Below, piece after piece: positions 20 through 44,927 of a stretch of DNA of 64,000 nucleotides (positions are counted from its first letter, which is position 1; the number at the start of each line of letters is the position of its first letter). Made by a program: the position numbers and the translations under genes. Location: contig JAHFEF010000001.1 of the NCBI GenBank assembly GCA_023248545.1, positions 150,329 through 214,328 on the forward strand, in the 5' to 3' direction. The notes below the pieces were generated by a model. It made no database searches and was not told the DNA's origin. It saw only the letters and a list, made by a program, of their open reading frames with translations. This DNA comes from Myxococcales bacterium (GTDB lineage: Bacteria > Myxococcota > UBA727 > JABDBI01).

Positions 20-655
20 TTGTTTATAAGTGCTGATAAAATGCAACATATGGGAGCTAAATCTGAAACAAAAGCCCTAGCATTATTTCGTCAAAACAAG
101 GGTGTCCTCAGAGCCCGAGAGGCTGTCAGGTTGGGGATTTATAGTATGACGCTGAACCGTCTACAAAATAAGGGCCTAATTGAATTGATTTCCCGGGGTA
201 TTTATCGCTTAACTGGGTTAGAACCCCTATCTCACCAAGATTTGGTGATTATCAGCGAACGCGTGCCAGGGGGGGTGATTTGTTTGCTCTCTGCGCTGGC
301 GTTTCATAAGATGACCACGCATAACCCCCGAGAAATATTTGTCGCTGTTCCTCGTGGACATCTGAAAACTCGTATCGATTGGCCCCCTGTCCATGTGTTC
401 CTGTTTGGGGACAAGGCTTATTCGGAAGGAATCGAAACTCATATTCTTGATGGGGTTTCGGTCAAAGTTTACAGCCGTGAGAAAACACTGGTTGATTGTT
501 TTAAGTTTAGAAACAGGCTTGGCTTAGACGTGTTTCTTGAGGCTCTGAAGGCCTATCGAGGAAAATCGCCTATTCAAGTTGATAAGATTCTATACTTCGC
601 TGAAATCTGCAGAGTGAAGCGGATTATCATGCCTTACATCGAGTCAATTCTATGA
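20..655 (+). CDS. abiEi: AbiEi-family antitoxin / transcriptional regulator (type IV TA)
   Basis: 211 aa with an N-terminal wHTH-like region. Its stop overlaps the start of the next gene (ATGA at 652-655), and that gene is AbiEii-like. The family call is from recognisable sequence similarity. Confidence 0.65.
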   Translation: MFISADKMQHMGAKSETKALALFRQNKGVLRAREAVRLGIYSMTLNRLQNKGLIELISRGIYRLTGLEPLSHQDLVIISERVPGGVICLLSALAFHKMTTHNPREIFVAVPRGHLKTRIDWPPVHVFLFGDKAYSEGIETHILDGVSVKVYSREKTLVDCFKFRNRLGLDVFLEALKAYRGKSPIQVDKILYFAEICRVKRIIMPYIESIL

Positions 656-1569
656 AAAAACCCATCATCAATATTGAACAGTCGATTCATCAGAAGCTTT
701 TGAATCAGGCGAAATCAACCAACCAAACGTTTGAACACGTCCTGAAGCGCTATGCGATGGAGCGATTTCTGTATCGGCTGTCTGTTTCGCCTCACGTAAA
801 CGACTTTATCCTAAAAGGCGGACTGCTGCTTGCTTGTTACGACGTACCGAGTTCCAGGCCAACGCTTGATATCGATTTACAGAGCTTCTATCCGGACCAC
901 CATCTAGACCGTGTTAAAATGGTCATTCATGAACTTTGTCAACTTCCGGTCGAACCTGATGGACTCCGATTTGATGCAACAAGTTTGGTTTGCGAGACCT
1001 TGAACCATCTTGATGGTTATGATGGCGTTGGTGTGCACCTCTTTTGCTACCTGGGTCGGGCTGATATCGCTGTCAAAATCGATATTGGTTTTAGTGGAGG
1101 TCTTCGTCCGGCTCCTGTTTTGGTTGATTATCCCACACTACTATCAATGCCAAGACCAAGGCTTCGGGCTTACAGACAAGAAAGTGTCATTGCCGAGAAG
1201 TTTGAGGCGATGCTAAAACATGACTTGGCAACCTCCAGGATGAAAGATTTTTATGATATTTGGATGCTGTCGTCGATATTTGAATACGAGAGCGTTGAAT
1301 TAATGATGGCAATCATGCAAACATTCAAGCATTGTAAGCGTGAAATCGGAGTTAAACCATCTGTATTTCAAGAGGCATTTGCAAGCGATCCCAGGTTGAC
1401 CAAAAAATGGCAGGTATTTCTCCAAAAGAATAACCTCACAGATGCACCAAGAGAATTCTCGGCCGTGATGGAACATATCGGGAAGTTTTTGCAGCCAATT
1501 GTAGAAAATTTAGCTAAAAAGGCTTCAATAAAGGCTCACTGGATACCGCCTGGGCCCTGGAAGGTTTAA
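652..1569 (+). CDS. abiEii: nucleotidyltransferase AbiEii/AbiGii-family toxin (DUF1814)
   Basis: 305 aa, translationally coupled to the upstream AbiEi-like gene. Size and composition fit the AbiEii nucleotidyltransferase family. Confidence 0.7.
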   Translation: MKKPIINIEQSIHQKLLNQAKSTNQTFEHVLKRYAMERFLYRLSVSPHVNDFILKGGLLLACYDVPSSRPTLDIDLQSFYPDHHLDRVKMVIHELCQLPVEPDGLRFDATSLVCETLNHLDGYDGVGVHLFCYLGRADIAVKIDIGFSGGLRPAPVLVDYPTLLSMPRPRLRAYRQESVIAEKFEAMLKHDLATSRMKDFYDIWMLSSIFEYESVELMMAIMQTFKHCKREIGVKPSVFQEAFASDPRLTKKWQVFLQKNNLTDAPREFSAVMEHIGKFLQPIVENLAKKASIKAHWIPPGPWKV

Positions 1570-4544: not shown

Positions 4545-6331
4545 ATGAAAAAAACTTTACTTGGTTGCGGTCTAGGTTTTGTGATGCTTCTATCGTTTTC
4601 TTGTGGTGGAGGGAATTCTACTTCGCAGGCCTCGGTTGATTCCAATCTTGCGGCGAGGGTCACCAATTCTCAAACAATTGATCAGAACAGTGTTCTAGTG
4701 TCTCAAGTCGGCGGTGTTTTTAAGACGGGCACTGCCTCCTACCTGCAAGGTTTTGACGCGTTTTTGGATCGCGTCAATGGGCACCCAACCATGAAATTCT
4801 CAGAACTTTTGCGAGGCAAGGTGCAGAAATTTCAACCCATCTTCCGCTGCCGCTGACGAGCAGTAAGCCGGTTTCAAGCACACCCAGCACAGCGCCTCCA
4901 GTTGCTTTCGATTGGAGAAGCAACTCTAAGGCCAGTGCGTGCAATATTAACTCGGTATTTAACCAAGGGCAATGTGGGTCTTGCTGGGCGAACTCGTCGG
5001 CCTACACAATAGGTAATGCCTATTGTGTCCAGAAAGGTGTCAACCCAGGCATGTTGTCAGCGCAGTATTTCATTGATTCAGCGATAGGGTATTCTAATTC
5101 TACGGAGGGCATTGCTGTTCCAGGTAGCTTTGGATGTGCGGGTGGATCACCTATTATAGCCATGAGTATTGCCAAAGAAACGCTCGGAGTTCCTACTAAT
5201 TCTTGTCGTGGCTCACTGTTTAACAACAGCGCTGCCGGTTCATTGGCTTGCATGGGAAACGATACGTGTTCGCGTTGCTCTTGTGTTTCCTCAACGGTGG
5301 CTGGTCAGGCCCAACCCCAAGCCCAGGCTGTTGACTATGCAACAGCCGCGACGACTGTATTAGCAGTAGGCGGAGTACCATCAGCATACTTTTTTGGGCT
5401 TCCGGTTGTTTTTGGTTTTGCGCCGCAATCGAATCTTGCGTTGACCGTGCAGACTCAAATTGGAAGTACCACGATCCTCGATGTGGCAAACCTGCCACAA
5501 TCAAGTTCACCAACGCTGTTGTCGGCACCCTATAGTGGGTTCTTGGGCATTGGAATGGCTAATCCAATGGATAATTTTTTTACACTCACAGGCTCTTATT
5601 CGTGTTTTCCTGGAACCGCTGACGTAACGCCTACACCGTGTACCTTCTCCACAACCTGTGACAATGGAACAGCCATATCATCGAATAGCTCAATAAAAGT
5701 AACGTCTGTTCATCAAATCGATAAGACGACACTCGGTGCGATTTCGACATTACAGGCTTCAGCAACTCCTCCCGTCGACACAACGGATCCATCCTATGTT
5801 GGCGCGATTAGTCAGATTAAAACCTTGGTTCAAACATATGGACCGGTCACAGTCGGATTTAGGGAGCCGTTTTCGTTTATGAACTATCGAGGCGGGGTGT
5901 ATAGCTACACAGGCTGGGTACCCTATGCGGTGGATAGTGCACCGGGCAAACCAGTAACTTGTACGGCGTCCACAGCTTCTACCGCGTGCGCCATTAGTGC
6001 GAATTCGGGTCCAAACGTTTATAAAATCTATACCGAATTAAGTAATATCGGAGGTTCACCGCTGCCCACCAATTGTGTCGGTTCGACATCTTGGCAACCC
6101 GTAACGGGTACAGCCGCTGGCATATGCGCGATGCAAGATGTCTTCGTCGGAGGTCACGCGGTGTCGATCGTGGGTTGGGGAACGGATTCGACGAGCAATC
6201 AAAACTATTGGATCGTCGCCAACAATTGGGGTTCAAACTGGGGGGAAGGTGGCTTTGTCAAAATGGCCATGAACGGCATGACGGGAGCTCAAATCTTCTG
6301 GTATGACTTCGTCGCTGCCGCTCAGTTTTAA
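4545..6331 (+). pseudogene. papain-family (C1) cysteine protease, apparently frameshifted
   Basis: Frame 0 (4545-4856) encodes a lipoprotein-like signal peptide and an N-terminal region. Frame +2 is open from 4757 and encodes FDWR...NQGQCGSCWA (catalytic Cys near 4976) with no in-frame ATG, GTG or TTG before 5051. The His (GGHAVSIVGWG) and Asn/Trp (YWIVANNWGSNWGEGGF) motifs follow in the 5051-6331 ORF. Confidence 0.6.
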
Positions 6332-6345: not shown

Positions 6346-7338
6346 TTAGTGTGAAGGCGGCTGGCAAGAAGGGCCAAAAGGGCCATTTTGACAGGTGTTG
6401 CCACTCGGGCAAACATTCCGACAGGCGCCGCAGTTATTTGCATCAGTGGCAAGGTTGGCGCAATAAGCTGCCGGTAACCCGTCGACAACGTCTGCACCGC
6501 TGTTGTAGCAGGTAGTTTGATTGGCAGAGCATGTAGTGGCCGGTGTAGCTGTGTTGGCGTGCCACAGGCTAACATTTGTACTGCTGTATATAACTAGATC
6601 GCCATTGTCTTGCAGGACGAGTTTGTCGCCAGGGTTGCCATCTGTGTTTGTTCTAAATCTGGGTATATTATTGACATCATAGACCACAAAATTGCCATCC
6701 GTCTGCATGTATGCGCTTCCGCCCGCGGCGATATTCGTGGTATTGGAGCTCCAAATAGCAGTGCTTGATTGATACAGTGCGAGATTGCCATCAGTTTGCA
6801 TGACTAGCCTATAGACGCCATTTTGGGACGTAAGCGTTGTACCGGAGGCGAGAGATGGCGCCGTCTTGCCTGGCGCGGCCGTGCTTTGGAGGGTTGTAGG
6901 GCTGGCGATTTCCTGGCATGCGCTGTTTGAGCACTGTTGATTATTCGAACACACCTTCCCACAGCTGCCGCAGTTACTGGCGTCAGTGGCAAGGGCAGCG
7001 CAATAGGGGGAGAGAAAAATCGTATTTCCTTCTTGGCCGGCGGGGCAAGTAACTTGACCGGTGGGGCATTGGCAAGAGCCATTCATGCAAGTGGCGCCGC
7101 TCGAGCAAACATTTCCACAGCTGCCGCAGTTATTGGCGTCAGTGGTAAGGTTGGTGCAATAGGAGGCGATTAGGCTGGTGCAAGTAACTTGACCGCTGGG
7201 GCATTGTCCGGCTGTGCCAGTTACCGCAAGGTTCGCATTGCCTGCTCCGTAATCGCTAGACCCACAACCAAATGAAGTGAAGAGGATGCCCGAAAAAACC
7301 AAAACAGTCGCAAATCTACAACAGTGTTCAAAGCTCAT
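6346..7338 (-). CDS. secreted bulb-type (B) lectin domain protein with Stig1-like Cys-rich repeats
   Basis: Signal peptide. Three QxDxNxVxY-like lectin subdomains (MQTDGNLALY, MQTDGNFVVY, LQDNGDLVIY). Four CxxLxTDxNNCGxCGxxC repeats. Confidence 0.75.
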   Translation of the reverse strand: MSFEHCCRFATVLVFSGILFTSFGCGSSDYGAGNANLAVTGTAGQCPSGQVTCTSLIASYCTNLTTDANNCGSCGNVCSSGATCMNGSCQCPTGQVTCPAGQEGNTIFLSPYCAALATDASNCGSCGKVCSNNQQCSNSACQEIASPTTLQSTAAPGKTAPSLASGTTLTSQNGVYRLVMQTDGNLALYQSSTAIWSSNTTNIAAGGSAYMQTDGNFVVYDVNNIPRFRTNTDGNPGDKLVLQDNGDLVIYSSTNVSLWHANTATPATTCSANQTTCYNSGADVVDGLPAAYCANLATDANNCGACRNVCPSGNTCQNGPFGPSCQPPSH

Positions 7339-7472
7339 TTTATGCCCCTTTAGCCGCTATGTAACTATCGGTATGAAAAAGTGCCATTTAGGTAATGGAT
7401 ATATTGCCGCTCGGGGGCTCGGCAGGCCTGGTGAAAACGGCTTCAAAGCTCGCCCCTGGTGATCAGGGGGAT

Positions 7473-7772
7473 TTATTTTGGATGTTTTGTAATGGCTAGG
7501 ATCGTAATATCATTGCTACCTGGTCCATAGCACCAAAAGATTCGATGAGCGCCTGGCGTATTGTTCTGAGCGTATGCTTCAAATACTTTGCCATCTTTTT
7601 TGAATGGATTTTCCAGCGAATGAAACGGGTGTGTTTCTAAACCAGGGTGTCTAGGATTTTGCTTCAGAAACTTGAGAGCTTTTTGAACCTGCTTGAAAAG
7701 CCCAGGCCTGGAGCTTTTTTCAAGCGAGCGATAAACCTCGAGGGCAGCGTCAGTCCATTGAAGATCAAACAT
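7473..7772 (-). CDS. RelE/ParE-superfamily toxin (YhaV-like)
   Basis: 99 aa with C-terminal HRIFWCYGPGSNDITILAITKHP, a RelE/YhaV-like core. Its start overlaps the stop of the upstream antitoxin gene. Confidence 0.55.
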   Translation of the reverse strand: MFDLQWTDAALEVYRSLEKSSRPGLFKQVQKALKFLKQNPRHPGLETHPFHSLENPFKKDGKVFEAYAQNNTPGAHRIFWCYGPGSNDITILAITKHPK

Positions 7773-8008
7773 TAGAGGGAGACCGCATTCTTAGTGAGCT
7801 TTCCGGATTTTGCTTGCTCTATGCCTCTTAAAACCTGCGCTTTGGCTTCAGGATTTCGATGGAGCCATAGTTCTCTTTCTGGGATGAGGGAGGCCTTTTT
7901 GAACACGAACTCACCAGGTTCCAGCTCCTCAACTAGAAAAAATTGCGAGGCAAAGGCGGTGCCCAAGTTAACTCTTCCTTTAGAATCTGCTTGTAGAGTG
8001 TGTTCCAT
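7772..8008 (-). CDS. AbrB/SpoVT-type (PrlF-like) antitoxin
   Basis: 78 aa with a DSKGRVNLG AbrB-like hairpin. ATGA overlap with the toxin gene. Confidence 0.55.
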   Translation of the reverse strand: MEHTLQADSKGRVNLGTAFASQFFLVEELEPGEFVFKKASLIPERELWLHRNPEAKAQVLRGIEQAKSGKLTKNAVSL

Positions 8009-8647: not shown

Positions 8648-11394
8648 AACTTCCCTGGCTGCGTTTATTAGAGGCTGTGAGGCCAGAACAAGTTTCGCTG
8701 AGGGTGATGTTTCACGAGTTGCCTCGGCGTGAAGGCAAGTGCCTAGCAGAACTTTATATTGAGCACATTGAAGGCGCTGTGAGCGAGCCTGGTAAGTTGC
8801 TCGACCCCAAATTAAATCTTTCTCCAAGGCAGCTGGCTTGTGTTCAGATTTTTGTAGCGTCCACGGCATTTTCAGCCAAACGTGATGTCTATGCTTTGAG
8901 TCCCGCTCAGGCCATGAGTGTTTTTTTACTGGCCAACGATGTGGGGGTCGAAGTCAGAAATCGAGGCATTGTTACGTTGAGCCCCACGCCAGCTTATTTG
9001 AAAGCCATTTTGGAGGCCGATAAGATTTTATTTCAGGCAGTCGATGCAAATCAAAAGCCAATTAATGAGCCGGTTGTCCTCGGCGTCGATCGGGCATTTT
9101 TGCTAGATTCAAAACTGAAGGTTTATAATCTAGAACCAGTGTTTTTGCCAAGCGAAGCCGATGCGTTGTTATCGATTCCCGCGTTGGCTCTTGAGTCTTT
9201 GGCACACGACGAGTCCCGTGTAGTCTGTTCGCAGTTGGCGAAGCTGGGCGTTGATTTGTCCTGTTTAAAGTCGCTGGGAAGGCAAGCCAAATCGCAGATA
9301 GCTTTGAGGGCGTTACTGGGTAAATCTCTTGAGTTGCGATTGCACTTGGTGAATATTTTGTCTGATGGGGATGTCGAAGACGAAGTTGAAATTAGGTCTA
9401 AAGGAGCCTTAGAACCGATTTTTTGGCTGCCCAATCAAATTGCAATACAGCGGCCGACTGAGCTCGAAGAACAAGCGCGTCAGGCCTTGTTTAAGTTGGG
9501 TGCTTTGCCCAGCCAAAAACACAAGGGTTTCTCAGCCAAGGGCCAAGAGGCGCTGAATCTGTTGTCGCAGATTTCAAATCCAAAAAATTTGCCTGAATGG
9601 TTGTGGGTAGACCCTGATTGTTTGCCAAAAATCATCGCGCTGCCACAAAAGCCAGCTCTGTGGGTCGAAAAGACCGCTGGGGCTGCTTTGAAAGTTCAAG
9701 TTCAGTTGGGCGATGTTTCTTTTTCGCTTGAAAAGCTATTTGAAATTGCTCATCAGGATGGCCAAGCCCTGTTGGTCGAAGACGATACGGTTTTGACTTT
9801 TTCAAAAGAAGCCGTGCGCTCCCTTAAAATTTTGACAGAGTCTTTAGAAATAGGTGAACTCTCTGAATCTAAAGAATACTCATTTTTTGAAATTGCACTG
9901 CTGTTACGCATGCTTGAGTCCAACATAGAAGTTCAAGCAGAAGAAGCTTTATATGAACGTTTGTCGAAGTTTGTGCCCGAATTATTGCCAGAAGATCATT
10001 TATTGCCCGGAACACTCCAGACAGCTTTGAGGCCATATCAGCACGACGCGGTTGCCTGGATGTCGCAGCTGCACCGAGCAGGCCTGGGGCGTCTATTGGC
10101 CGATGAAATGGGTCTGGGTAAGACGCTGATGGTCTTGTGTTTGTTGGTAAAGATTAAAGAACATGAAGGCGCAAAACCCAGTCTGGTAGTTGCCCCAACG
10201 AGTGTGCTCGATGTTTGGATGGCGGAGTCCAAACAGCATTTTGTGGGCTTAAACACGGTCAAATGGCACGGCGCTGATCGGGCGGAGCAGATTGAAGAGG
10301 CGAAGAAGGCTGATTTGGTGATCACCAGCTATGCGCTCCTACGCCGTGATATTCAGACATTGTCGGAGATTAATTTTCGTTATTTGGTGGTGGACGAAGC
10401 GCAGATTATTAAGAATTCGAAAACAGAAAGCTGGAAAGCGGCACGATTGATTAGATCTGAACAGCGTTTGGCATTGTCTGGAACGCCCATCGAGAACAGG
10501 ATCTCAGACTTACATAGTATTTTAGAATTAGTATCGCCAGGTATTTTGGGTGACGAGAGAGCTTTTGTGAAGCGCTATGGTGCGGGTGAAAAAAACGCTG
10601 AGTTGCGTGAACGCGTACGGCCCATGATTTTACGGCGTCGAAAAGAAGAAGTTGAAAGCGATTTGCCGCCCAAAATCGAAAATATTTTGCGCTGTGACAT
10701 GGCGGCCGAACAACGAACGCTCTATTTGGAGATTTTGCGGGCTGCTCAGAAAGAACTTAACCATGCGGCTTATAATAGTATCCCTCTATTGGCCGCATTG
10801 ACGCGTTTGAGGCAAGTTTGCTGTGATCCGAGTTTGATACCGGATCAGCGGGGTAATTTGGGTTCGGCCAAACTGGATTTATTTATTGAGATGATCCAAG
10901 AGTGCTTGTCCAATGGCCGTCGCGTGATCGTGTACAGCCAGTTTGTCAAAATGCAGGGTATTTTGCTGGATGCGCTGGCCAGGCATGGCATCAAAGATAC
11001 ACTTTGGCTGCACGGTGCGACGCAAAATCGAGGAGAGGTCGTCGCGGAGTTTCAAAAACCAGATGGCCCCAGAGTGATTGTGGTGAGTTTGAAAGCCGGT
11101 GGGACGGGTATTACGCTGACAGCGGCCGATACGATTATTTATTACGACCCCTGGTGGAATCCAGCCGTGATGGATCAAGCGGCTGATCGGGCTCATCGGA
11201 TTGGTCAAACCAAGACGGTGCACTTGATCAAATTAGTTTGCCACAATAGCATCGAAGAGCAAATATTGGCTTTGTGTGAGAAAAAACGCGCGGTTGCTGA
11301 CGACGTTTTGTTGGCCGATCGGGCAGGGCAGCGATCACTGACGCTCGAGGACATTAAACAGCTTTTGCAAGTGGAGATAGACCGGGATTTATGA
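8641..11394 (+). CDS. SNF2-family helicase
   Basis: 917 aa. RPYQHDAVAWM, GLGKTL, DEAQIIKN and C-terminal helicase motifs (DPWWNPAVMDQAADRAHRIGQ). The roughly 450-aa N-terminal domain is unassigned. Confidence 0.85.
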   Translation: MLELPWLRLLEAVRPEQVSLRVMFHELPRREGKCLAELYIEHIEGAVSEPGKLLDPKLNLSPRQLACVQIFVASTAFSAKRDVYALSPAQAMSVFLLANDVGVEVRNRGIVTLSPTPAYLKAILEADKILFQAVDANQKPINEPVVLGVDRAFLLDSKLKVYNLEPVFLPSEADALLSIPALALESLAHDESRVVCSQLAKLGVDLSCLKSLGRQAKSQIALRALLGKSLELRLHLVNILSDGDVEDEVEIRSKGALEPIFWLPNQIAIQRPTELEEQARQALFKLGALPSQKHKGFSAKGQEALNLLSQISNPKNLPEWLWVDPDCLPKIIALPQKPALWVEKTAGAALKVQVQLGDVSFSLEKLFEIAHQDGQALLVEDDTVLTFSKEAVRSLKILTESLEIGELSESKEYSFFEIALLLRMLESNIEVQAEEALYERLSKFVPELLPEDHLLPGTLQTALRPYQHDAVAWMSQLHRAGLGRLLADEMGLGKTLMVLCLLVKIKEHEGAKPSLVVAPTSVLDVWMAESKQHFVGLNTVKWHGADRAEQIEEAKKADLVITSYALLRRDIQTLSEINFRYLVVDEAQIIKNSKTESWKAARLIRSEQRLALSGTPIENRISDLHSILELVSPGILGDERAFVKRYGAGEKNAELRERVRPMILRRRKEEVESDLPPKIENILRCDMAAEQRTLYLEILRAAQKELNHAAYNSIPLLAALTRLRQVCCDPSLIPDQRGNLGSAKLDLFIEMIQECLSNGRRVIVYSQFVKMQGILLDALARHGIKDTLWLHGATQNRGEVVAEFQKPDGPRVIVVSLKAGGTGITLTAADTIIYYDPWWNPAVMDQAADRAHRIGQTKTVHLIKLVCHNSIEEQILALCEKKRAVADDVLLADRAGQRSLTLEDIKQLLQVEIDRDL

Positions 11395-11750
11395 AAATTC
11401 TAATTTTCTTGCTGTTACTCAGTGCGGCTTGTTCCAAACCCCAAAAACCAGAACCTGTGCCAGCTGTGGGTCTCGCGGGTTCAGACAAAATATCGCCCAA
11501 TCCAATTTACGAGGGTTTGATTGACGAGGTGATCGAGCGTGATCAATTTGATTACGTGCGCATCGGACAAAACTGGTTTGCCTTGGTGGGCGTGTCTCTT
11601 AAAGCCGGTCGACAAGTGAAAATCGAAGAACAGGCTGTGTTCGATAATTTTCATTCGAAGACGTTAAATAGGACGTTTCAAAAAATTATTTTTGGAAAAT
11701 TAGTGTCGCCAAAACCGGCAAATGGTCCGAAGCCTGTTGAGTCTCATTGA
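11391..11750 (+). CDS. small lipoprotein, hypothetical
   Basis: Lipobox-like LLLSAACSKP. Start overlaps the SNF2 stop. Confidence 0.4.
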   Translation: MKILIFLLLLSAACSKPQKPEPVPAVGLAGSDKISPNPIYEGLIDEVIERDQFDYVRIGQNWFALVGVSLKAGRQVKIEEQAVFDNFHSKTLNRTFQKIIFGKLVSPKPANGPKPVESH

Positions 11751-17554: not shown

Positions 17555-18697
17555 TTATTGGTGGAGCAGAATGGATATAGTGTCACTGTTTTGATTGGCG
17601 ACAGCGATGTCTAATTTTCCATCTTGATTGAAATCGCCACTCACGATACCGCGAGGAGCTTTCCCGCCTGTTCCGCAAACATCTGTTTGGCTAAAAGTAC
17701 CATTTGTACTTTGCAAAACTGAAACGGTATCGTCCAGCAAATTAGCCACCACGATGCTTTTGTCCCATGCGATGAGATCGGCCGGTCTTCTTCCCACTGT
17801 GACCTGCTGGGAGAGAGTGGGGACATTGCCCTTTGAAACCGTGAAGAACGAAACGGTTGTTCCTCCGAGGTCACTGATGGCGATGCCAAATTTCCCGACA
17901 AGAATTCTGTCTGGCACAGTAATACTGGTTGGCAATTGGGTGGCATTGCACGAAAAGCTCAAGCTCAGACTGGTAGGTGTGCTGTTATTGACACATAAAC
18001 TGAGCGACTTGTCGCCGTAATTGAGCACGGCGAGACCCGGACCAGAGCCCGAATCGAGAGAAATCAGCTGAACATGTCCAGGTCCTTTCCCGCCGGTCGT
18101 TACCTGAATGGCGCTGGGTGTTGGTGTGGCAAAAACGTCGCTGACAACACTCAGATAGTCTGCGCCGCGGTTTGCAACAATCAAGTCAGGTTTCTGATCT
18201 CCGTTTAAATCATGGATGACAATACCTCGTGGCAATGAACCGGTGGGGATGGTCGTCAGGGTGGGTACCATGGGAGTACTATTGCTTAAGGGCTGGGGCA
18301 TTGGAAAGTAAACAACCGAATTGCTGAGCGACATGAACCAGTAGTCGACATTGTTGTAGGCAGTGGATTTAACTTCTGAGGAGGCACCTGGTAGTTGGAC
18401 GCTGCTCGGGGGGACAGAAAAGCCAGCATCTGCACTGGTTACCAGGAAGGTGCCGCTATTTGTTACGGTGTCATTGCTTCCGACCAATAAGCTGAGTTTT
18501 CCGGCATAATTGCCAGAAGCGATGCCATAGGGAAGCTTTCCCGCGGTTCCATAGGATGTGATAGACGGTCGAAACAGGGAACAAGTTAACGACGGTGTAC
18601 TGGTCACTGCCAGGTTACTGTTCCCGGTCTGAGCTCCGTCATTAGAGCTACCACATCCAGATAAAAATATCAAAGCAAGAACAATTTTGGGGTACAT
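17555..18697 (-). CDS. FG-GAP/VCBS repeat lipoprotein
   Basis: Lipobox FLSGC. Repeats DLNGDQKPDLIVAN and GDFNQDGKLDIAVAN. Confidence 0.7.
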   Translation of the reverse strand: MYPKIVLALIFLSGCGSSNDGAQTGNSNLAVTSTPSLTCSLFRPSITSYGTAGKLPYGIASGNYAGKLSLLVGSNDTVTNSGTFLVTSADAGFSVPPSSVQLPGASSEVKSTAYNNVDYWFMSLSNSVVYFPMPQPLSNSTPMVPTLTTIPTGSLPRGIVIHDLNGDQKPDLIVANRGADYLSVVSDVFATPTPSAIQVTTGGKGPGHVQLISLDSGSGPGLAVLNYGDKSLSLCVNNSTPTSLSLSFSCNATQLPTSITVPDRILVGKFGIAISDLGGTTVSFFTVSKGNVPTLSQQVTVGRRPADLIAWDKSIVVANLLDDTVSVLQSTNGTFSQTDVCGTGGKAPRGIVSGDFNQDGKLDIAVANQNSDTISILLHQ

Positions 18698-23126: not shown

Positions 23127-25352
23127 TTACTCGCTCAAATAATTGAGCGCCGACCCGGCCTTAAACCACTTGATCTGGTCATCAGAGAGCGTGTGTTTGC
23201 ACATAATCGGCTCTTTGCCAGAGATGAGTACTTGCACGGGTTTTCCGGGAGCCAAATGCGCCAAATCTAGGACGCTGAGGGTATCTTTCTCGCCGATTTT
23301 GTCATAGTCGGCTGGATTGGAAAAAGTCAGTGGCAAGACGCCATGTTTTTTAAGATTGCTTTCATGAATGCGAGCGAAACTGCGGGCAATAATTACTTTG
23401 CAACCGAGGTGTCTAGGTTGCATGGCAGCATGTTCACGGCTGGAACCTTCCCCGAAATTCTCATCCCCAACCACACACCAATCTGTATGGCTGTCTTTGT
23501 AGCGCCGTGCTTGCTCCGGGAAGCTGCCTTGATAGCCTTTGCCGGCTTCGCCGGTGTAAGCATTGATGGCACCCATATAGGTGTTGCCAGAAATTTTGTC
23601 CAAGTGGCCCCGATATTGTAGCCAAGGACCGGCTTGAGAAATATGGTCTGTTGTGCACTTGCCCTTGGCCTTGAGTAAAATCGGCAGGTTCAGAAAATCG
23701 TGGCCACCCCAAGCCGGGAAGGGTTCTAACAAAGCGAGTCTCTTAGAATCAGGAGCGATTTTGACTTCGAGGGTCGAGTTATCTGAGACTGGCTCGACAA
23801 AGCCAGCGCGATCTATTTTGAAGCCTTGTGCAGGCAAAGCATCTGAGGCTGGGACCGGAAGGCCCAAATCTTTTGTTGGGTCGCCATCGAGGGTACCAGA
23901 GAGTGCATAAGCCACGGTGACTTCGGGGCTGGCTAAGAAAGACAGCGTGGCTGAACTGCCATCGTTTCGCCCGGGGAAGTTTCTGTTGTAAGAGCTGATA
24001 ATCGAGTTGACCTGGCCCTTTTTCATGTCTGTACGGCGCCATTGGCCGATGCACGGGCCGCAGGCATTCGCGAGCAAGATACCCCCGATGGCTTCGAGAG
24101 CTTTGAGCTGGCCATCTCGCTCGACGGTGGCATAGACGGTTTCGCTGCCAGGGGTAATATAAAACGGGATTTTGGCTTTGAGGCCAGCTTTGAGCGCTGC
24201 TTGGGCAATAGACGCTGCGCGCCCAATGTCTTCGTAGGAGCTATTCGTGCAGCTGCCAATCAAAGCCGCACTGGGGATGGCTGGATAGTGCTCGGTCTGG
24301 ATCGCTTTGCGAAGCTCCGAAATCGGCCTCGACAAATCCGGCGTATGGGGTCCGACGACATGGGGTTCCAATGTGTTTAAGTCGATATGAATCACGCGGT
24401 CATAAAATTTTTCGGGGTTGGCTAAGACTTCAGGGTCAGCTTGTAAATGCTCGCGTTCAGCTTCGGCACGTTCGGCAATATGGGCCCGGGCAGTGGCTTT
24501 AAGATAAGCTGCCATGGTGTTGTCATAGGGAAACACAGACGTCGTTGCGCCGTGTTCAGCACCCATATTGGTAATGGTTCCTTTGCCGGTGGCCGAGATG
24601 CTTTCGCAGCCGGGGCCAAAGAACTCGACGATATGACCCGTGCCTCCTTTGACGGTCAGAATGCCCATGAGCTTCAAGATCACGTCTTTGGGCGACGTCC
24701 AACCCGAAAGTTTGCCTGTGAGTTTGACGCCAATGATACCCGGCCAGTTCAAACTAAAAGGCTGACCGGTCATGACGTCGACGGCATCAGCGCCGCCCAC
24801 CCCGATGGCAATCATGCCCAAGCCACCGGCATTGGGGGTGTGCGAGTCTGTGCCAAGCATCATGCCACCGGGGAACGCGTAATTTTCGAGAACCACCTGG
24901 TGAATAATCCCTGAGCCGGGCTTCCAGAAACCCATGCCGTATTTTTGACTCGCCGTTCTCAAAAAGTCATAGACTTCTCGGTTGGTGACCAAGGCTTCTT
25001 TTAAATCAGGATCGGCGCCACGTTGGGCTTCTATCAAGTGGTCACAATGAATGGTTGTCGGAACAGCGGTGGTTCTTTTGCCAGCGGTGATAAATTGCAA
25101 AACGGCCATTTGCGCAGTGGCATCTTGCATGGCGACGCGATCCGGGTAAAAATTAGCGTAAGAGTGTCGGCGTTTCAGCTGGTTTCCATCTTCGTCGCAG
25201 ACTGCCTTCATGTGGCTGACCAAGATTTTTTCTGCGAGGGTGAGAGGACGTCCGAAGTGTTTGCGGCCTTCTGCAATTTTTGTCGCGTTCATAACGCTCT
25301 GTCTAGCAAGCTTAGATGTGAAGTCAAGGTTGTTCGCCCAATTCATGTCCAA
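23127..25352 (-). CDS. acn: aconitate hydratase (mitochondrial-type)
   Basis: 741 aa. RPLTLAEKIL, DRVAMQDATAQMA, TIHCDHLIEAQ, GSCTNSSYEDI. Confidence 0.9.
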   Translation of the reverse strand: MDMNWANNLDFTSKLARQSVMNATKIAEGRKHFGRPLTLAEKILVSHMKAVCDEDGNQLKRRHSYANFYPDRVAMQDATAQMAVLQFITAGKRTTAVPTTIHCDHLIEAQRGADPDLKEALVTNREVYDFLRTASQKYGMGFWKPGSGIIHQVVLENYAFPGGMMLGTDSHTPNAGGLGMIAIGVGGADAVDVMTGQPFSLNWPGIIGVKLTGKLSGWTSPKDVILKLMGILTVKGGTGHIVEFFGPGCESISATGKGTITNMGAEHGATTSVFPYDNTMAAYLKATARAHIAERAEAEREHLQADPEVLANPEKFYDRVIHIDLNTLEPHVVGPHTPDLSRPISELRKAIQTEHYPAIPSAALIGSCTNSSYEDIGRAASIAQAALKAGLKAKIPFYITPGSETVYATVERDGQLKALEAIGGILLANACGPCIGQWRRTDMKKGQVNSIISSYNRNFPGRNDGSSATLSFLASPEVTVAYALSGTLDGDPTKDLGLPVPASDALPAQGFKIDRAGFVEPVSDNSTLEVKIAPDSKRLALLEPFPAWGGHDFLNLPILLKAKGKCTTDHISQAGPWLQYRGHLDKISGNTYMGAINAYTGEAGKGYQGSFPEQARRYKDSHTDWCVVGDENFGEGSSREHAAMQPRHLGCKVIIARSFARIHESNLKKHGVLPLTFSNPADYDKIGEKDTLSVLDLAHLAPGKPVQVLISGKEPIMCKHTLSDDQIKWFKAGSALNYLSE

Positions 25353-26332: not shown

Positions 26333-26378
26333 AAGCGGTTTAATGGGTTGGTTGCTATATACCCAAACGGAGGTAGGA

Positions 26379-29192
26379 ATGGGCTTCGGATACTGTTGTA
26401 AAATCGCGGCTGTTTTGCTCTTTTCTAGCATCGTTTTCACATCGTTTGGTTGCGGGTCTGGCTATGGGACAGATGCCGGTGGTGGGAATCTCGCAGCGGC
26501 CGGTGGAACAACGATGAAGTTCTTTGCTGAACCTAGGTTCGGTGGTGGGGGGCTCAGTGGCAGTATACCCCGTGACAATAGTGTCTCCGCTTTCACCGTT
26601 TCGCAAATCACCAACACAGGTTTGCTTGATACGAGCTTTACTTGCAATCCTCCGATAACTGCGAGCGGGATTTGGAAATGTACTTCGAAGAATCCACTTG
26701 CAGATGGGGCATATTTGATCACCACAAACTCAACAAGCTCATCCCCTCCACAAGCGCATATTCTGATTTTCACTTCGGCCTACCCAACAGCTGGGTCTGC
26801 CACCAACCCGATTAAATTCATTACGTCAGACACTGCTATGACCAATTATTTGCTGGGATCTATCAGTGGCGATGCATTCGCCAGCCTGGTGGACAATTCG
26901 AAGTCTACCGATCCATTTTTTGATGTCTATTCTGCGTTTAGCCTTTTTGATTCAACCGATATATCTGCCTTCCTTACGAGCAATAGCAAATTATTTACTT
27001 TTTCTTCTCCCGCCTGCTCGTCGACCGAATTGTTTCCGTCCAAACCGTGGAGCCCGCACGGGTCTTTGAGTGCGAGCAGCAAAATTGTACAGCAGTTGGA
27101 CAGCGGGCACCCGGATGAGTTGACGACTGCTGTTGGGTTAAACGGAGCCAACAACAGTTGTACTCTGGGGACCATCTTAGATACCCCCATCAGCAAACTG
27201 AGTTATCAGGTCTATGGAGGGGCTTATAACGAGAGTAGCCTAGCCAGTTCCATTGCCTTATGCCAAGATTATTCCCACCCTGATTTCGGTGTCGTTGCTA
27301 CGACGGTCTTGGATGCAGCAACCCAAACCAATCTCGGTTGGTATGCTCTGAGAAAATCTGATTTGCCAGCGTTTGTATTGGGCGAATTTTTAGAGTCCGG
27401 GACCGCCCCCAGTATCCAATTTCAGAAAACCGACGGCATTACGTTTTCACCCGATAACATCGCCAGAAACATGATTTTGTCCGATCAACCCCAACAAACG
27501 TATCTTGCGGCTGTAAACCCCAATAAAGACATTTGGTTGTTTAGCAAATGTAACAACGGACCTGATCTGCAATTGGGCTATACACCTGCTTCGACAACAG
27601 TTTCACTCACTTTGTCAAAAAATGCTCCCATTTTGAGTTCTGGAAAGAGAGGCCATTTGCAGATGCTGGTTGTAAAAATTACGGACGAGAGATTGAGCGA
27701 TCTGAAAACTGCTTGTTTGGACAACCTGACCAACCTCGCCCAGGTGCCAAGTCACTTCTTCTCCCCAGTTTGGCCCCTTCTGGTACAAGGTTCAGATGAT
27801 GGAAGGAAACAGCTGGCTGAGTGGATTGGATCGTCAAGGTGTTTATGCGGGTCCTTGTGGAGCTACCCTTATCAGCAAGATTCGATTGTGGATGGGCGAG
27901 ATGACTTCAATTTTATCGTGCCAGCCATCGTTCCTGGAGCCCAGGTCAGTTTCACGACCAGCAAGAGTGGGTTCAGTGGCACAACACCCTCGGCCAACTC
28001 ATCGGGTGTCGTGGGTTATGGCTCGACTCAGTTCCAAGCAGGGGACGTGGTGACGTTTACAACCGGTGCTATCCCACTTGGCTCCTGCACAATTCCAGCT
28101 TGCGCAGCCAATCAGCCGATCATTTTTGCAGATGGCGTCTGTCAGGCTTGCCCGCTAGGACAGTTTCAACAAGACAACGTGTGTATACCCTGTACGCCGG
28201 GCCCCCAGGATCCGGCCGCCTATCTGCCCGCAAACTCTAACCAGTGTCAGCTATGTCAGACGGGCTATTATGAGGAAAATAACGTCTGTACATTATGTCC
28301 CGCAGCTTCCTATCTGCCTACCGGAACGAGTGTCTGTATACCCTGCGCTCCCGCCCAAATCCAAAAGAACAATCAGTGCGTAAATTGCGGTTCGGGCAAA
28401 TATGAAGAGGACAACGTTTGTAAGCGCTGCCTTGGTGCAACTTATTTGCCTGCAGGTTCAAATTCCTGTCAACCGTGTCCCAGCGAACAATTCCAAGCAG
28501 AAAATGTTTGTCAATATTGTACAGGTCCGAATTACTTGCCCAAAGGCAGCAATACCTGTCAGGCTTGTGGTCCGGCACAGATTCAAAAAAACCACCAATG
28601 TCAGCAGTGTCCCGAGAACCATTATCAAAGCAATAACGTCTGTGTACACTGTCCTGCCGCGCATACCTTGCCCGCAAACTCTAACGAGTGCCAGCCATGT
28701 CAGCTGGGCTATTATTCAAACAACAATGTCTGCACAGAGTGTCAGGGTACCACCTACTTGCCTTCAGGTTCCAATACTTGCATAGCTTGCGGTGGGGCCA
28801 ATATTGTCATTGCCAACACGTGCACACTTTGTCCCCCTAGAAGTGTAGCCTCGGGCCGTTCTACTTGCACTCCCTGTGGTTATGGACAAATTGAAACTAA
28901 CAATGCTTGTACCACCTGCCCCGCGGGCCAAATAGCGACTTCGCTCAACACATGCGCTGCAGGGCAAACCAATGACGGCTGTGGAAAAAACTCGGACTGC
29001 GCGCCTGACTTCACGTGCCCGGCGACAACGAATCAATCCGGTACCTGCGCGGCATGTCCTTCAGCCCAACACCATTTATCGTTTACTCCAAACAAGTGTA
29101 CGACCGGTCTAACGGGTTCTCCTTGTGATATTCAAGAAGACTGCGGTGGGGCCTTAAAATGTCTTAACAGTATTTGCACCAACGGAAATTAG
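26379..29192 (+). CDS. secreted Cys-rich protein with ephrin-receptor/furin-like repeats
   Basis: N-terminal leader (CCKIAAVLLFSSIVFTSFGCGS) homologous to the lectin gene at 6346..7338. About 10 C-terminal repeats of the form CxxCxxxxYLPxGSNxCxxC. Confidence 0.7.
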   Translation: MGFGYCCKIAAVLLFSSIVFTSFGCGSGYGTDAGGGNLAAAGGTTMKFFAEPRFGGGGLSGSIPRDNSVSAFTVSQITNTGLLDTSFTCNPPITASGIWKCTSKNPLADGAYLITTNSTSSSPPQAHILIFTSAYPTAGSATNPIKFITSDTAMTNYLLGSISGDAFASLVDNSKSTDPFFDVYSAFSLFDSTDISAFLTSNSKLFTFSSPACSSTELFPSKPWSPHGSLSASSKIVQQLDSGHPDELTTAVGLNGANNSCTLGTILDTPISKLSYQVYGGAYNESSLASSIALCQDYSHPDFGVVATTVLDAATQTNLGWYALRKSDLPAFVLGEFLESGTAPSIQFQKTDGITFSPDNIARNMILSDQPQQTYLAAVNPNKDIWLFSKCNNGPDLQLGYTPASTTVSLTLSKNAPILSSGKRGHLQMLVVKITDERLSDLKTACLDNLTNLAQVPSHFFSPVWPLLVQGSDDGRKQLAEWIGSSRCLCGSLWSYPYQQDSIVDGRDDFNFIVPAIVPGAQVSFTTSKSGFSGTTPSANSSGVVGYGSTQFQAGDVVTFTTGAIPLGSCTIPACAANQPIIFADGVCQACPLGQFQQDNVCIPCTPGPQDPAAYLPANSNQCQLCQTGYYEENNVCTLCPAASYLPTGTSVCIPCAPAQIQKNNQCVNCGSGKYEEDNVCKRCLGATYLPAGSNSCQPCPSEQFQAENVCQYCTGPNYLPKGSNTCQACGPAQIQKNHQCQQCPENHYQSNNVCVHCPAAHTLPANSNECQPCQLGYYSNNNVCTECQGTTYLPSGSNTCIACGGANIVIANTCTLCPPRSVASGRSTCTPCGYGQIETNNACTTCPAGQIATSLNTCAAGQTNDGCGKNSDCAPDFTCPATTNQSGTCAACPSAQHHLSFTPNKCTTGLTGSPCDIQEDCGGALKCLNSICTNGN

Positions 29193-29201
29193 CGAGGGCT
29201 T

Positions 29202-30956
29202 ATGCTCAGAATAATCATGATGGTGTTCCTAGTTTGCTCCTGCAGCGATCCCCGTAGTAACGGTGCAAGTGACAATCTAAGCGCTGACAACGTTCCATCC
29301 AACCCATTGAGTTTTTACGCCGAATTTTGGTATGCAACAAGCAACAGCCTATTGCCCGATGATAGCGTTTCGACTGTAACAGTCCAAGCCGTTGACTCCA
29401 AAGGGACGCTTTCCACCGTTTTATTTAACTGTACCAAGAACTTTTATTGTACTTCGAATAATCCATTGCCAGATGGCATCTACCTGGTAACAACCGATTC
29501 AACGAAGTCTAACCCGAAACAAGCCCATTTATTCACCCTGGGGACGGGACATACCACCGCGGGCACTCAATTGGAACCCGTCAAAATTACAACATTTGAT
29601 GAAAACATCAGCACGTACATTCTGGGCTTGATGAAAACCGGAAGTTATGATTTTCAGACGGCTTTTGTTTCCAAAAATACACAGTATGCGAACCCATTGA
29701 GAATGTTTTACGAGGACTATTACTACACCAATTTGAATAATACCCCTACTTTGACATCGTTGGGCACCTATTTGAGTAAAAACCCCGCTGTTTTTTTTGA
29801 ATTTGTTACAGCACCTACGCAGTCTCAGATACAGTGTAGCGAGCTACCCATCGAGGTTCCATTGGGTGTTCCCGGAATTGGCGTCAGTGTTAACATCAAT
29901 CAGACCTCTATTTACAATTTTACAACCGGTTCATCAGATGGAGTAGCACGGGTAACGTATACCAATGCCTTTCCGGGTGATTCAATCGCATTTTTAGTGG
30001 GGGAAAACCCATTGGAAGACTTTTTTGGCAGTGCCATTGCGTGCAGCATCCCTGATTGCCCCATCAACGGGTCGACGGTCAGCGGCTGGGTCACCACAAC
30101 GAGCGGAGCCAGTTGTCAGGTATGTCCAGCTAATAGCATCAGTGTGAAAAACCTCTGCCAAACCTGTGGCCCATTAAGCGACCGAGAAACTAACAACGCT
30201 TGCCATTGTGGTACAGGGCCTGTTTGCGGCGCCACTTTTTCGAATAATTGCACCGATGGCAGTTGTCAGTGCGGAACTGGGCCCCAGTGTGGCAGTCAGA
30301 ATTCTGATGGTTGTACAGGTGGAGCTTGCCTGTGTGGCAGCAATCCAGCGTGCAGCGGCTCCACAGACACTTGTACCCAGGGTGCTTGTTTTTGTGGCAC
30401 TGGCCCCGCGTGCACTGGAACCACAGACACCTGTATCAATGGGTCTTGCGTTTGCAAGGCAAACAACAACCAACCTTGCAACAGCCGCTCGGCCCCAGTT
30501 TGTTCATCGGTAGGCTGTGGGTGTGGTGACAATGGTGTGCGATGTTCCTCTGAAGCATCCTGTTTTATCGTACCTGTGGGTGATAGCCCATCCGGCTATG
30601 CGTGCAGTTGCTCGTCCAGCTCGCAATGCGCCAGCGGATTAACCTGTCAGCTAGATCCTCAGACTGGACTCCAATTCTGTTTGAGCGTTCCCACAGGATG
30701 CGATCTTCGTAACGCGGGCAACTTCCCCAATGGTTGTTCCTGCAAAACCTCATTAGATTGCCAATACCAATACTGCGCCGATTCATCGGGTCAGTCGTTG
30801 ACTGCATGCGCAACCGGGCTTGCGTGTACCTGTCAGACCCAACCTTCCCAACCTTGCACGGGTTGCAGTTGCTATACCAACCCAAACGATTGCACAAACA
30901 GTCCATTGGGGTGTGCTTGGGCGCCATCTCCTTTCAACTTGTGTTCCCCTGGATAA
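29202..30956 (+). CDS. secreted Cys-rich protein, paralog of 26379..29192 at its N-terminal domain
   Basis: The N-terminal domain aligns with the upstream gene (NPLPDGIYLVTTDSTKSNPKQAHLF versus NPLADGAYLITTNSTSSSPPQAHILIF). C-terminal repeats of the form CxCGTGPxCxxxxxxCxxGxC. Confidence 0.7.
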   Translation: MLRIIMMVFLVCSCSDPRSNGASDNLSADNVPSNPLSFYAEFWYATSNSLLPDDSVSTVTVQAVDSKGTLSTVLFNCTKNFYCTSNNPLPDGIYLVTTDSTKSNPKQAHLFTLGTGHTTAGTQLEPVKITTFDENISTYILGLMKTGSYDFQTAFVSKNTQYANPLRMFYEDYYYTNLNNTPTLTSLGTYLSKNPAVFFEFVTAPTQSQIQCSELPIEVPLGVPGIGVSVNINQTSIYNFTTGSSDGVARVTYTNAFPGDSIAFLVGENPLEDFFGSAIACSIPDCPINGSTVSGWVTTTSGASCQVCPANSISVKNLCQTCGPLSDRETNNACHCGTGPVCGATFSNNCTDGSCQCGTGPQCGSQNSDGCTGGACLCGSNPACSGSTDTCTQGACFCGTGPACTGTTDTCINGSCVCKANNNQPCNSRSAPVCSSVGCGCGDNGVRCSSEASCFIVPVGDSPSGYACSCSSSSQCASGLTCQLDPQTGLQFCLSVPTGCDLRNAGNFPNGCSCKTSLDCQYQYCADSSGQSLTACATGLACTCQTQPSQPCTGCSCYTNPNDCTNSPLGCAWAPSPFNLCSPG

Positions 30957-30999: not shown

Positions 31000-31236
31000 G
31001 ATCAGCAGCAAAACGGCCACGGGGAATAGAAAAATCCCCCAGAAATAGAGCCAGAACCAACTGCCGTGATATCGAAAGCCAAATCGCGAGCCGCCATGAA
31101 CAAAGTAGCCTCTTCGGATGAACATCAAGACGCCGAGTGGCAGCAGAATGATCAAGAAAAAGATGAGAAAAAACAAGTTGCCCTCGTAACGGACGGGGGA
31201 TGAAAATTTGACCGTGGTTGTTGAAACGTCGTTCAT
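30958..31236 (-). CDS. small 2-TM membrane protein, translationally coupled to the M8 protease gene
   Basis: 92 aa with two strongly hydrophobic helices. ATG 31236-31234 overlaps the TGA stop of the upstream gene as ATGA. Confidence 0.4.
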   Translation of the reverse strand: MNDVSTTTVKFSSPVRYEGNLFFLIFFLIILLPLGVLMFIRRGYFVHGGSRFGFRYHGSWFWLYFWGIFLFPVAVLLLIFKGVDITQEAIRP

Positions 31237-33074
31237 GGACCGACCATAGCATAGATGGCTGAAACGAGGGCAACCGTGAAGGCCATAATTGTGTCGAAGC
31301 CACGAGCGCTGCTCGGTGCGGGTGGCGGCGGTGCCGGGGGTATGGGTTTTGGGGTCGGCGCAGCCGTTGTGGTGCTGGGCGGTGGTGCCGGTGGCATCGG
31401 AGCAGGTGCTGCCGTGCTGCTGCTTGCGCTCGGCGTTGGACCTGGGATGCTCGACTGAGCGCACAGCGTCGAAGCGGCTGGGCAGTTAATATAACCCTGA
31501 TAGCCAGATTGGATGGGTGATAGATTGGCTGCCCCTGCGCTACCGTCGCTGGGACACGACACAGTTGTTCCTTGAATGTTGAGGAGCAGTGAGCCTGTTC
31601 CAGAACAGGAGTACTTCAAGCAACGGGCGCCTTGTGAATCAGCAACAAAGCCGTTTTGAATCAAGTTGGAGTCGAAGCACCGACTGCTGGAACCGTAGGT
31701 GGCTCCAAAAACATTTTGAGAGTCTGTGGTCGCAGGATCGATGCAAACTCGATTGGAATAGCCAACCACGTGGGGGCAGTAGTCCGCTAAATCAATGGCT
31801 CCTCCTAAATTCGGGTTTGCAAAATATTGTTCGTAGCTAGGGAGAGCCGAACTGTATTGAGCCAGGAAGCACTGTCCGATGGCGGTCAAGTCCTGCGTAC
31901 AAAGCTGGGTTTGACTGTTTTGTGTCCAGCACCATTCACCCAGGTCTCTCACGGCAGCGTCATTGCAAGAGGAGAGTGCGAAGTTGCAGCCTTTGCCTTT
32001 TCCCCACGTGATAGGGTCTGCTTGAGAGTAGTTGGCTCTGTAGTTGCCCGTGTCTTCAAAGAAAGCCAATGTCATGCGGGAAAAATAAGCCCGTGCCGTG
32101 CTAATTTCACCCACCATGGCTTCGGGGACTAAGATTCTTTTTTCCCAGTGTGATCCCGCGGTGCCGCTTCCCCCTTGGTCTTCGATCTCAAGGCCATTGA
32201 GGGTGGGGCAATTGAAATGAGCCCGGGCTTCAGCCAGCACACGCGGTGAGTTAATTTTAGACACCATATGGCTTCGCTCAGAGATCGTGAGTGTCCCCCC
32301 TGCATGAAATGCATCGTCGAGTCCAAGATAGCCCCTTGAACTAAAAAATGGCGCAGAGAAACCCAAAGCATGGGTGGCTTCGTGTTTGGCTGTGACGATA
32401 TCCAAGTCAGTTTGTATAGAATTTTGAGTGTCAGCGTTTGTTAGAACCGATGGAATAAAATTAATTTGTGCGGCAACGGGTCGGCCATTCCCGTCTGTTC
32501 GACAAGCGACTGCCCAGGCCAGGACGTTGGAGTTAGGATCTCTTGCAGGTGCGGCGGAGACATAAATCACCAAATCGGTATTGGGGATGCCTGTGGTGGT
32601 GTGCGCAGCGGGCACCACAATGCCTGGAGAGACACCACAGGTTGAACCTTGTGAAGAGCCCGATATGACCAAATTACCCATGACGGGGTTTACCTGGAGC
32701 GTGTTTTGAAACCAAGCCTGAGCTTGGGCCAGAACGGTGTTTAACAAATATGTCTTTTTACTGGGTGTGAGCACGTCAACACTGCGACAAGCCTGGGTAG
32801 TTCCTTCAAAATTCGTGACGGTTTGTCCAATGCTTTCGCAGTGTGCGCAGGTGCCCGCTGAGCAATCTCCGGGATCAAACACCACGGTGATTCGAATGGG
32901 GGACCAGGTCAGTTGTGGGCCCCCGGGACCGGGGGCCCAGAGGGAGTAGGGGACCCTGATCGTGTCGGGGTCTCGAAATGTGCTCCAGTTTCTGACATCA
33001 TCGTGGGTGCAGGTATAGTTCTGAGCATAAGCGCCAAGCGATCCGAGCAACAAGAGCAACAATTGATAGACCAT
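31233..33074 (-). CDS. leishmanolysin (peptidase M8, GP63)-like secreted zinc metalloprotease
   Basis: Signal peptide. HEATHALGF (HExxH) and a downstream SHWEKR third-ligand motif. Pro-rich linker and C-terminal hydrophobic tail. Confidence 0.8.
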   Translation of the reverse strand: MVYQLLLLLLGSLGAYAQNYTCTHDDVRNWSTFRDPDTIRVPYSLWAPGPGGPQLTWSPIRITVVFDPGDCSAGTCAHCESIGQTVTNFEGTTQACRSVDVLTPSKKTYLLNTVLAQAQAWFQNTLQVNPVMGNLVISGSSQGSTCGVSPGIVVPAAHTTTGIPNTDLVIYVSAAPARDPNSNVLAWAVACRTDGNGRPVAAQINFIPSVLTNADTQNSIQTDLDIVTAKHEATHALGFSAPFFSSRGYLGLDDAFHAGGTLTISERSHMVSKINSPRVLAEARAHFNCPTLNGLEIEDQGGSGTAGSHWEKRILVPEAMVGEISTARAYFSRMTLAFFEDTGNYRANYSQADPITWGKGKGCNFALSSCNDAAVRDLGEWCWTQNSQTQLCTQDLTAIGQCFLAQYSSALPSYEQYFANPNLGGAIDLADYCPHVVGYSNRVCIDPATTDSQNVFGATYGSSSRCFDSNLIQNGFVADSQGARCLKYSCSGTGSLLLNIQGTTVSCPSDGSAGAANLSPIQSGYQGYINCPAASTLCAQSSIPGPTPSASSSTAAPAPMPPAPPPSTTTAAPTPKPIPPAPPPPAPSSARGFDTIMAFTVALVSAIYAMVGP

Positions 33075-44856: not shown

Positions 44857-44927
44857 AGAGAATCCTCCCATTTAAGGCCTCTTGCCCTGTATCTAATGTC
44901 TCTGGGGGATAATTGCCAAGAGGCGCG

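Follow-up and report, generated by a model that had tools for sequence, protein, structure and literature searches.

Do proteins with unrelated bodies, encoded in one segment of a bacterial chromosome, share an N-terminal leader, and if so, what part of the leader is shared and how did it come to be shared? The question is raised by three predicted lipoproteins, here called A, B and C, that are encoded in a stretch of 64,000 nucleotides (the window; 49% G+C), in which Rfam finds one tRNA and no other match. An earlier note, made from the sequence, had read the three N-termini as homologous beyond a generic signal peptide, and had proposed either a common sorting or export tag or the recombinational shuffling of a leader cassette onto different bodies. 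The three N-termini were confirmed in position and reading (Table 1). Two further predicted lipoproteins of the window, D and E, enter the comparison below.

Genes and Their Architecture

Table 1. Genes, signal peptides, tethers and homology tracts in the window
Feature	Position	Strand	Description	Basis
Gene A	6346..7338	-	330 aa, predicted lipoprotein; Stig1/MXAN_6577-like Cys-rich repeats and bulb-type (putidacin-like) lectin domain	ORF, Pfam, NCBIfam
A signal peptide	7264..7338	-	MSFEHCCRFATVLVFSGILFTSFGC; lipobox SFGC, Cys25	PROSITE-like lipobox rule
A tether	7213..7263	-	GSSDYGAGNANLAVTGT; NLAV at 7222-7233	
A side of A/B DNA homology tract	7252..7339	-	88 nt	blastn, codon test
Gene B	26379..29192	+	937 aa, predicted lipoprotein; orphan N-terminal region of ~570 aa, then C-terminal CxxC-type Cys-rich repeats	
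B side of A/B DNA homology tract	26378..26465	+	88 nt	blastn
B tether	26454..26513	+	GSGYGTDAGGGNLAAAGGTT; NLAA at 26487-26498	
Gene C	17555..18697	-	380 aa, predicted FG-GAP beta-propeller lipoprotein	
C signal peptide	18653-18697	-	MYPKIVLALIFLSGC; Cys15, ...FLSGC	
C tether	18596..18652	-	GSSNDGAQTGNSNLAVTST; NLAV at 18605-18616	
Gene D	29202..30956	+	584 aa, tandem paralogue directly downstream of B; signal peptide MLRIIMMVFLVCSC	
D tether		+	SDPRSNGASDNLSADNVPSNP (Cys followed by SDPRSNGASDNLSADNV); NLSA at 29274-29285	
ORF E	4545..4856	+	103 aa; lipoprotein leader MKKTLLGCGLGFVMLLSFSC, then tether GGGNSTSQASVDSNLAARVT; NLAA at 4644-4655	
Peptidase_C1 open frame	4757..6331	+	Entire domain (5.7e-30), without its own signal peptide; overlaps E in a different frame	

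Gene A joins Cys-rich repeats to a lectin domain, and the architecture that the earlier note had described is borne out by Pfam matches to Stig1 (2.7e-13) and B_lectin (4.4e-7; 30.8 bits, under the gathering cut-off of 32.4). NCBIfam adds the putidacin-L1 lectin family (1e-21) and the MXAN_6577-like Cys-rich family (2e-19), both under their curated cut-offs. The protein is present as an identical copy on four metagenome contigs. Two small overlapping ORFs of 78 and 99 aa (7473-8008, minus strand) adjoin gene A and resemble a toxin-antitoxin pair; another such pair, AbiEi/AbiEii-like, lies at the start of the window (20-1569, plus strand).

The start codon of gene B is the ATG at 26379; a GGAGG ribosome-binding site precedes it, and metagenome gene callers choose the identical start. 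Its N-terminal region of ~570 aa has no family match in the domain search. Residues 1-572 of B, joined to four leaders in a chimeric query, retrieved only B itself from 5.8 billion proteins in a word-indexed search, which is insensitive to short matches and missed even the exact A leader. The mature N-terminal domains of B and D are 31% identical (E 2e-19). The C-termini of both (26379-30956, plus strand) consist of Cys-rich CxxC repeats with a weak resemblance to Giardia VSP or TNFR-like modules.

ORF E came to notice when the leaders were compared with the window by tblastn; it represents the 5' part, out of frame, of a papain-like peptidase gene. A frameshift in this gene (4545-6331, plus strand) splits the ORF for the leader and pro-region from the catalytic frame, and the split has an identical sequence in an independent ENA assembly. 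The gene could be a pseudogene, the frameshift could be programmed, or the two assemblies could share a sequencing error. The Stig1 and papain domains share the window with further eukaryote-like proteins: a leishmanolysin (Peptidase_M8, 3.9e-105; 31233-33074, minus strand), a mitochondrial-type aconitase (TIGR01340, 1018 bits; 23127-25352, minus strand) and a collagen-repeat/DUF7151 protein (42973-44871, minus strand).

Predicted Lipoprotein Signal Peptides

Lipoboxes were called with a PROSITE PS51257-type rule, {DERK}(6)-[LIVMFWSTAG](2)-[LIVMFYSTAGCQ]-[AGS]-C. The pattern is matched by A, B, C, D and E, with the classical Leu at -3 only in C (LSGC). The lipobox Cys is residue 25 in A and B, 20 in E, 15 in C and 14 in D, the last being one short of the 15-35 range of the rule. 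Lys or Arg occurs inside the first seven residues of C, D and E, and at position 8 in A and B. All five proteins have the lipobox, the uncharged hydrophobic region and a Lys or Arg near the N-terminus. On these sequence features, they are very probably lipoproteins. Genes for OMPLA (outer-membrane phospholipase A1, PF02253) and for an OmpL-like porin are also present in the window, which indicates that the organism is a diderm.

The leaders resemble ordinary signal peptidase II leaders in having an N-terminal Lys/Arg, an uncharged hydrophobic core, a lipobox Cys at 14-25 and a Gly/Ser-rich linker. They differ in three respects: the lipobox is S-F-G/S-C in A, B and E (the A and B leaders end in FTSFGC), not L-[AS]-[GA]-C; the n-region of A and B contains a Cys-Cys pair; and 10-14 residues after the Cys there is a conserved element, NL[AS][AV], for which Pfam and NCBIfam have no model. 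The Cys-Cys pair is part of a Cys-Cys-Arg/Lys triplet (A, MSFEHCCR, 7315-7323, minus strand; B, MGFGYCCK, 26394-26402, plus strand) that is unusual for signal peptides and absent from P0065, a homologue of A described below.

The export tag of the earlier note therefore stands in the ordinary sense of a lipoprotein signal peptide and polar tether, with five carriers in the window. We infer from established knowledge that it would serve the ordinary route of Sec, Lgt and signal peptidase II. Sec would export each protein, Lgt would lipidate the lipobox Cys and signal peptidase II would cleave just before it. The mature protein would then hang from the membrane by a tether some 10-14 residues long, in which Gly, Ser, Asn and Asp abound and which ends in NL[AS][AV].

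A Signal Peptide Shared by A and B at the DNA Level

The earlier note had also seen nucleotide similarity between the starts of A and B, and the alignment of the leader DNA upholds it. In blastn the two genes are 78.4% identical over 88 nt (E 3e-16, and 1.5e-17 in a second comparison), and this is their sole significant match. The tract (-1 to +87) takes in the single nucleotide ahead of the ATG and codons 1-29, and ends four codons past the lipobox Cys. At the protein level, blastp gives 60% identity over 43 aa, and an alignment of the pre-Cys peptides scores 95, where shuffled sequences give 21 +/- 5. Outside the 88 nt, blastn and blastp find no similarity between A and B upstream or in the bodies, Cys-rich low-complexity matches aside. 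More generally, no pair among A-E has similarity in the upstream region, promoter or 5' UTR at E <= 0.05. An assembly artefact was considered as the source of the A/B similarity and rejected, since the tracts agree at just 78% of positions and four independent contigs carry the identical A.

Codon choice divides the two leaders at about the same place. Within codons 1-28, 12 of the 17 codons that specify the same residue in A and B are identical, against 6.5 expected from the codon usage of the window (P = 0.0045). In the tether none of eight such codons is identical, and the contrast between the two segments is significant (Fisher p = 0.0016). Synonymous divergence is thus low in the signal peptide and saturated just after it, which implies that the DNA for the signal peptide shares a more recent ancestry than the sequence downstream. 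Codon usage specific to signal peptides could be a partial cause of the excess identity.

The histories of leader and body also differ in the relatives of these genes. The signal peptide of D is unrelated to that of B, despite the paralogy of B and D, and P0065 has retained the leader. In all probability, A and B exchanged a common signal-peptide segment, or inherited it, separately from their bodies. Codons 1-29 of the two genes would then be a tract of gene conversion or of recombination at the 5' end.

The Tether after the Lipobox Cysteine

A and C resemble each other in a different part of the leader. Immediately after the Cys, 17-19 residues are alike (GSSDYGA--GNANLAVTGT in A, GSSNDGAQTGNSNLAVTST in C), with the pattern GSS..GA..GNxNLAVTxT. 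This alignment scores 51 against 19 +/- 4, a value reached by 0 of 5000 shuffles. The pre-Cys parts of A and C are not significantly similar in the shuffle test and show no signal-peptide likeness beyond composition. No DNA similarity was found between A and C, and identical codons make up 4 of 15 same-residue positions against 4.5 expected, so that synonymous sites are saturated. The B tether (GSGYGTDAGGGNLAAAGG) has marginal similarity to those of A and C (p about 0.05).

Since A and B share the signal peptide, and A and C share the post-Cys stretch, the similarity is a mosaic and not one common module. The homology beyond a generic signal peptide claimed earlier holds above chance for A and C after the Cys and for A and B before it; it does not reach significance for A and C before the Cys, and is borderline for A and B after it. 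Likewise, the G-x-G-N-x-N-L-A-V-T segment, said to be common to all three, belongs to A and C, while B has only GGNLAA. Judging from the sequences, the tether similarity appears to be old and kept at the protein level only, which is consistent with functional constraint.

The core of this similarity, NL[AS][AV], recurs in the window. It occurs seven times in 18,780 aa (47 window genes), against about two expected, and five of the seven sites fall 11-14 residues past the lipobox Cys, a positional window of four residues, in A, B, C, D and E. The carriers are five of about eight lipoproteins surveyed in this one 64-kb window, and their bodies are unrelated: a papain-like peptidase, a lectin/Cys-rich protein, an FG-GAP propeller and the B/D family. 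The motif closes the tether, and the first folded element follows 7-12 residues later. Two lipoproteins are without it: a primary-amine oxidase (47392-49404; Cys followed by SDSAKLH...) and a small ORF of unassigned function (11391-11750). The E. coli counterpart of the amine oxidase, TynA, is periplasmic. The collagen-like protein noted above also has no motif, and its own lipobox is doubtful. Two readings of the motif were rejected: it is not an N-glycosylation sequon, as N-L-A differs from N-x-S/T, and a structural role within one fold does not apply, as the bodies are unrelated.

Because the motif was chosen with the data in view, and because the tethers are of low complexity, composition-preserving controls were used. 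An identical 3-mer is shared by at least four of the eight tethers in 2.9% of such shuffles. The best shared 7-mer block of the eight tethers scores 79 against 64.7 +/- 4.7, a value reached in 19 of 3000 shuffles. The motif is thus real but not overwhelming, and the positional clustering adds weight outside the 3-mer and 7-mer tests.

Relatives and Distribution of the Leader

When a profile built from the three leaders was run against 1.84 billion representative proteins, only A, B, C and one weak match, P0004, came back. This is a DUF1573/HYDIN-like Ig protein whose leader reads LLFSALVFTAVGC, followed by GSDYGTASGNA (E 5.6e-4). Nothing in this search points to a widely distributed tag. A word-indexed search with the alignment of the three leaders gave no candidates. 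Searches of GTDB species genomes and JGI metagenome contigs with the A leader and with an alignment of the A, B and P0065 leaders gave pattern matches only, none of which was confirmed by tblastn. On the leaders alone, no Pfam or NCBIfam model matches, and the 64-kb window holds no extra or silent leader copies.

Two homologues of A are informative. P0065, on another NCBI contig, is 48% identical over 69% of A. Its leader, IALGLIFSSIIFTSFGC up to the cleavage site and SSNYGSKTGNLAAN after it, ends in FSSIIFTSFGC before the tether, and both leader and NLA are kept; by a manual residue count, its pre-Cys part is more like that of B than that of A. The second, P0100, is a short lectin homologue from the two ENA samples that also contain A; its lipobox VFSSC is followed by GSSDNGTAS, with no NLA. 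The contig of P0100 (L009) also encodes an HSP20-family protein (73-684, plus strand) that is unusually Cys-rich, with several Cys-Cys pairs. The combination of leader and tether is therefore lineage-restricted, and is not universal even within the lineage.

Proposed Explanation and Alternatives

We lean, with modest confidence, towards a lineage-specific prolipoprotein leader joined to a tether rich in Gly, Ser, Asn and Asp, in which the signal peptides of A and B were subject to gene conversion or recombination at the 5' end. The NL[AS][AV] element would be under purifying selection and read by the lipoprotein handling machinery of the lineage, most likely for sorting to, or release from, the cell surface. 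These components differ in strength. That the element is selected because something reads it is a somewhat favoured reading of the sequence statistics. That the reader is a surface-sorting or release step is a tentative suggestion, more apt to prove wrong than right; it is prompted by the effector-like nature of the carriers (protease, lectin, propeller and Cys-rich adhesin-like protein) and by the Acinetobacter T2SS/GspN precedent described below. It is rather improbable that NL[AS][AV], 10-14 residues after the lipidated Cys and behind a Gly/Ser/Asn/Asp tether, is a previously undescribed sorting or release signal in an uncultured lineage of diderms, marking lipoproteins of the protease, lectin and adhesin-like kinds that are bound for the surface or the medium.

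The best-placed alternative is that only the signal-peptide paralogy of A and B is real, and that the post-Cys likeness arose by chance in low-complexity linkers of Gly, Ser, Asn and Ala behind a generic GCGS start. Such a start is common among bacterial lipoproteins. The marginal A-B and B-C tether similarities, the frequency of 3-mer sharing in shuffles and the near-empty result of the profile search all fit this account. It is harder to reconcile with the A-C tether score that no shuffle reached, with the rarity of the 7-mer block score, with the gathering of five of seven motif sites in one four-residue window after the Cys and with the retention of the motif in P0065. We regard chance as unlikely, though a serious contender.

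A second alternative makes NL[AS][AV] a secondary proteolytic site, at which the lectin, protease and other bodies are shed from the lipid anchor into the medium. The carriers are of the extracellular-effector type, among them a papain-like protease and a lectin akin to the lectin-like bacteriocins, and the place of the motif at the end of the tether, just ahead of the first folded element, would suit such cleavage. No cognate protease was found, however, and the motif is not known to match any cleavage site; shedding of this kind seems improbable.

The proposal of recombinational shuffling holds for A and B only, where DNA homology is confined to codons 1-29 and the leader of D is unrelated; nothing in the window points to a dedicated cassette. 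Such a system, comparable to Borrelia erp or Mycoplasma vlp/vsp, would recombine one promoter-leader unit onto many bodies and diversify surface antigens. In its favour, A and B carry a similar signal peptide on unrelated bodies, the paralogue of B bears a different leader, and Borrelia erp genes do place one leader and sorting sequence on bodies of many origins (PMC10016077). Against it, every pair lacks upstream or promoter homology, no additional copies of the leader exist in the window, and identity of only 78% implies that any exchange was not recent. The genes are, moreover, dispersed in a housekeeping chromosomal context, and no recombinase was noticed in the nearby ORF lists and domain scans. 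A dedicated cassette is accordingly very improbable. Equally improbable is an explanation of the synonymous conservation in the 88-nt tract of A and B by an mRNA-level element (acting in translation control or as a small-RNA target) in place of recombination: the codon identity does exceed the expectation from codon usage, but the similarity has no 5' UTR part, as it begins 1 nt before the ATG, it stops just past the signal peptide, and no Rfam family matches there.

Comparison with Known Systems

Signals for surface lipoproteins are, to our knowledge, described in a few lineages only: the Bacteroidetes LES, the Borrelia tethers, the Neisseria Slam substrates and the Acinetobacter T2SS/GspN motif. 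The closest evolutionary analogue of the leaders described here is the Borrelia Erp family. In Borrelia burgdorferi, the Erp (OspE/F/Elp) genes carry one leader and sorting sequence on bodies of many origins, with shared promoters and loci on prophage plasmids (PMC10016077). Common to both cases are a conserved leader and first mature residues on unrelated bodies (here A and B), and recombination, probable for A and B, as the source. Erp genes, however, share promoter and operator DNA and occupy allelic sites on cp32 prophage plasmids, whereas the genes of the window have no upstream homology, are chromosomal and dispersed, and show leader homology at the DNA level only in the pair A/B.

In Acinetobacter baumannii, Gly/Ser- or Asn/Asp-rich residues right after the lipobox are required for surface display that depends on T2SS and GspN (PMC12802150). 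The proteins described here have post-Cys residues of the same kinds, and their bodies look like those of surface or extracellular effectors. The Acinetobacter motif consists of GGG or ND(N/D) at P2'-P4' with enrichment of Gly, Ser, Asp and Asn over P1'-P8'. In the window, GGG is seen in E, GSS or GSG before D, N or G in A, B and C, and SDPRSNG in D; the composition fits this motif, and the exact logo does not. The Acinetobacter motif, in turn, spans P2'-P8', and at +10 to +14 it has nothing like NLA. Neither T2SS genes nor gspN were noticed in the ORF lists and domain scans of the window.

The LES of Bacteroidetes, K-(D/E)2 or Q-A-(D/E)2 straight after the Cys (PMC5080379), is likewise a short post-Cys signal on lipoproteins with diverse bodies, and decides their surface exposure. 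It is absent at +2 to +5 of A-E, where the residues are GSSD, GSGY, GSSN, SDPR and GGGN, in order. These positions hold Gly and Ser without an acidic cluster. The Shine-Dalgarno sites upstream of A and B speak against Bacteroidota as well.

The finding amounts, at present, to a modest variation, restricted to one lineage, on ordinary lipoprotein export; it is not a new system. Within it, the pair A/B illustrates, neatly and on a small scale, how a signal peptide can pass between genes that are otherwise unrelated. If a position-specific motif does mark unrelated lipoproteins of the effector type, it would offer a cheap handle for predicting the surface proteome and would hint at another sorting rule.
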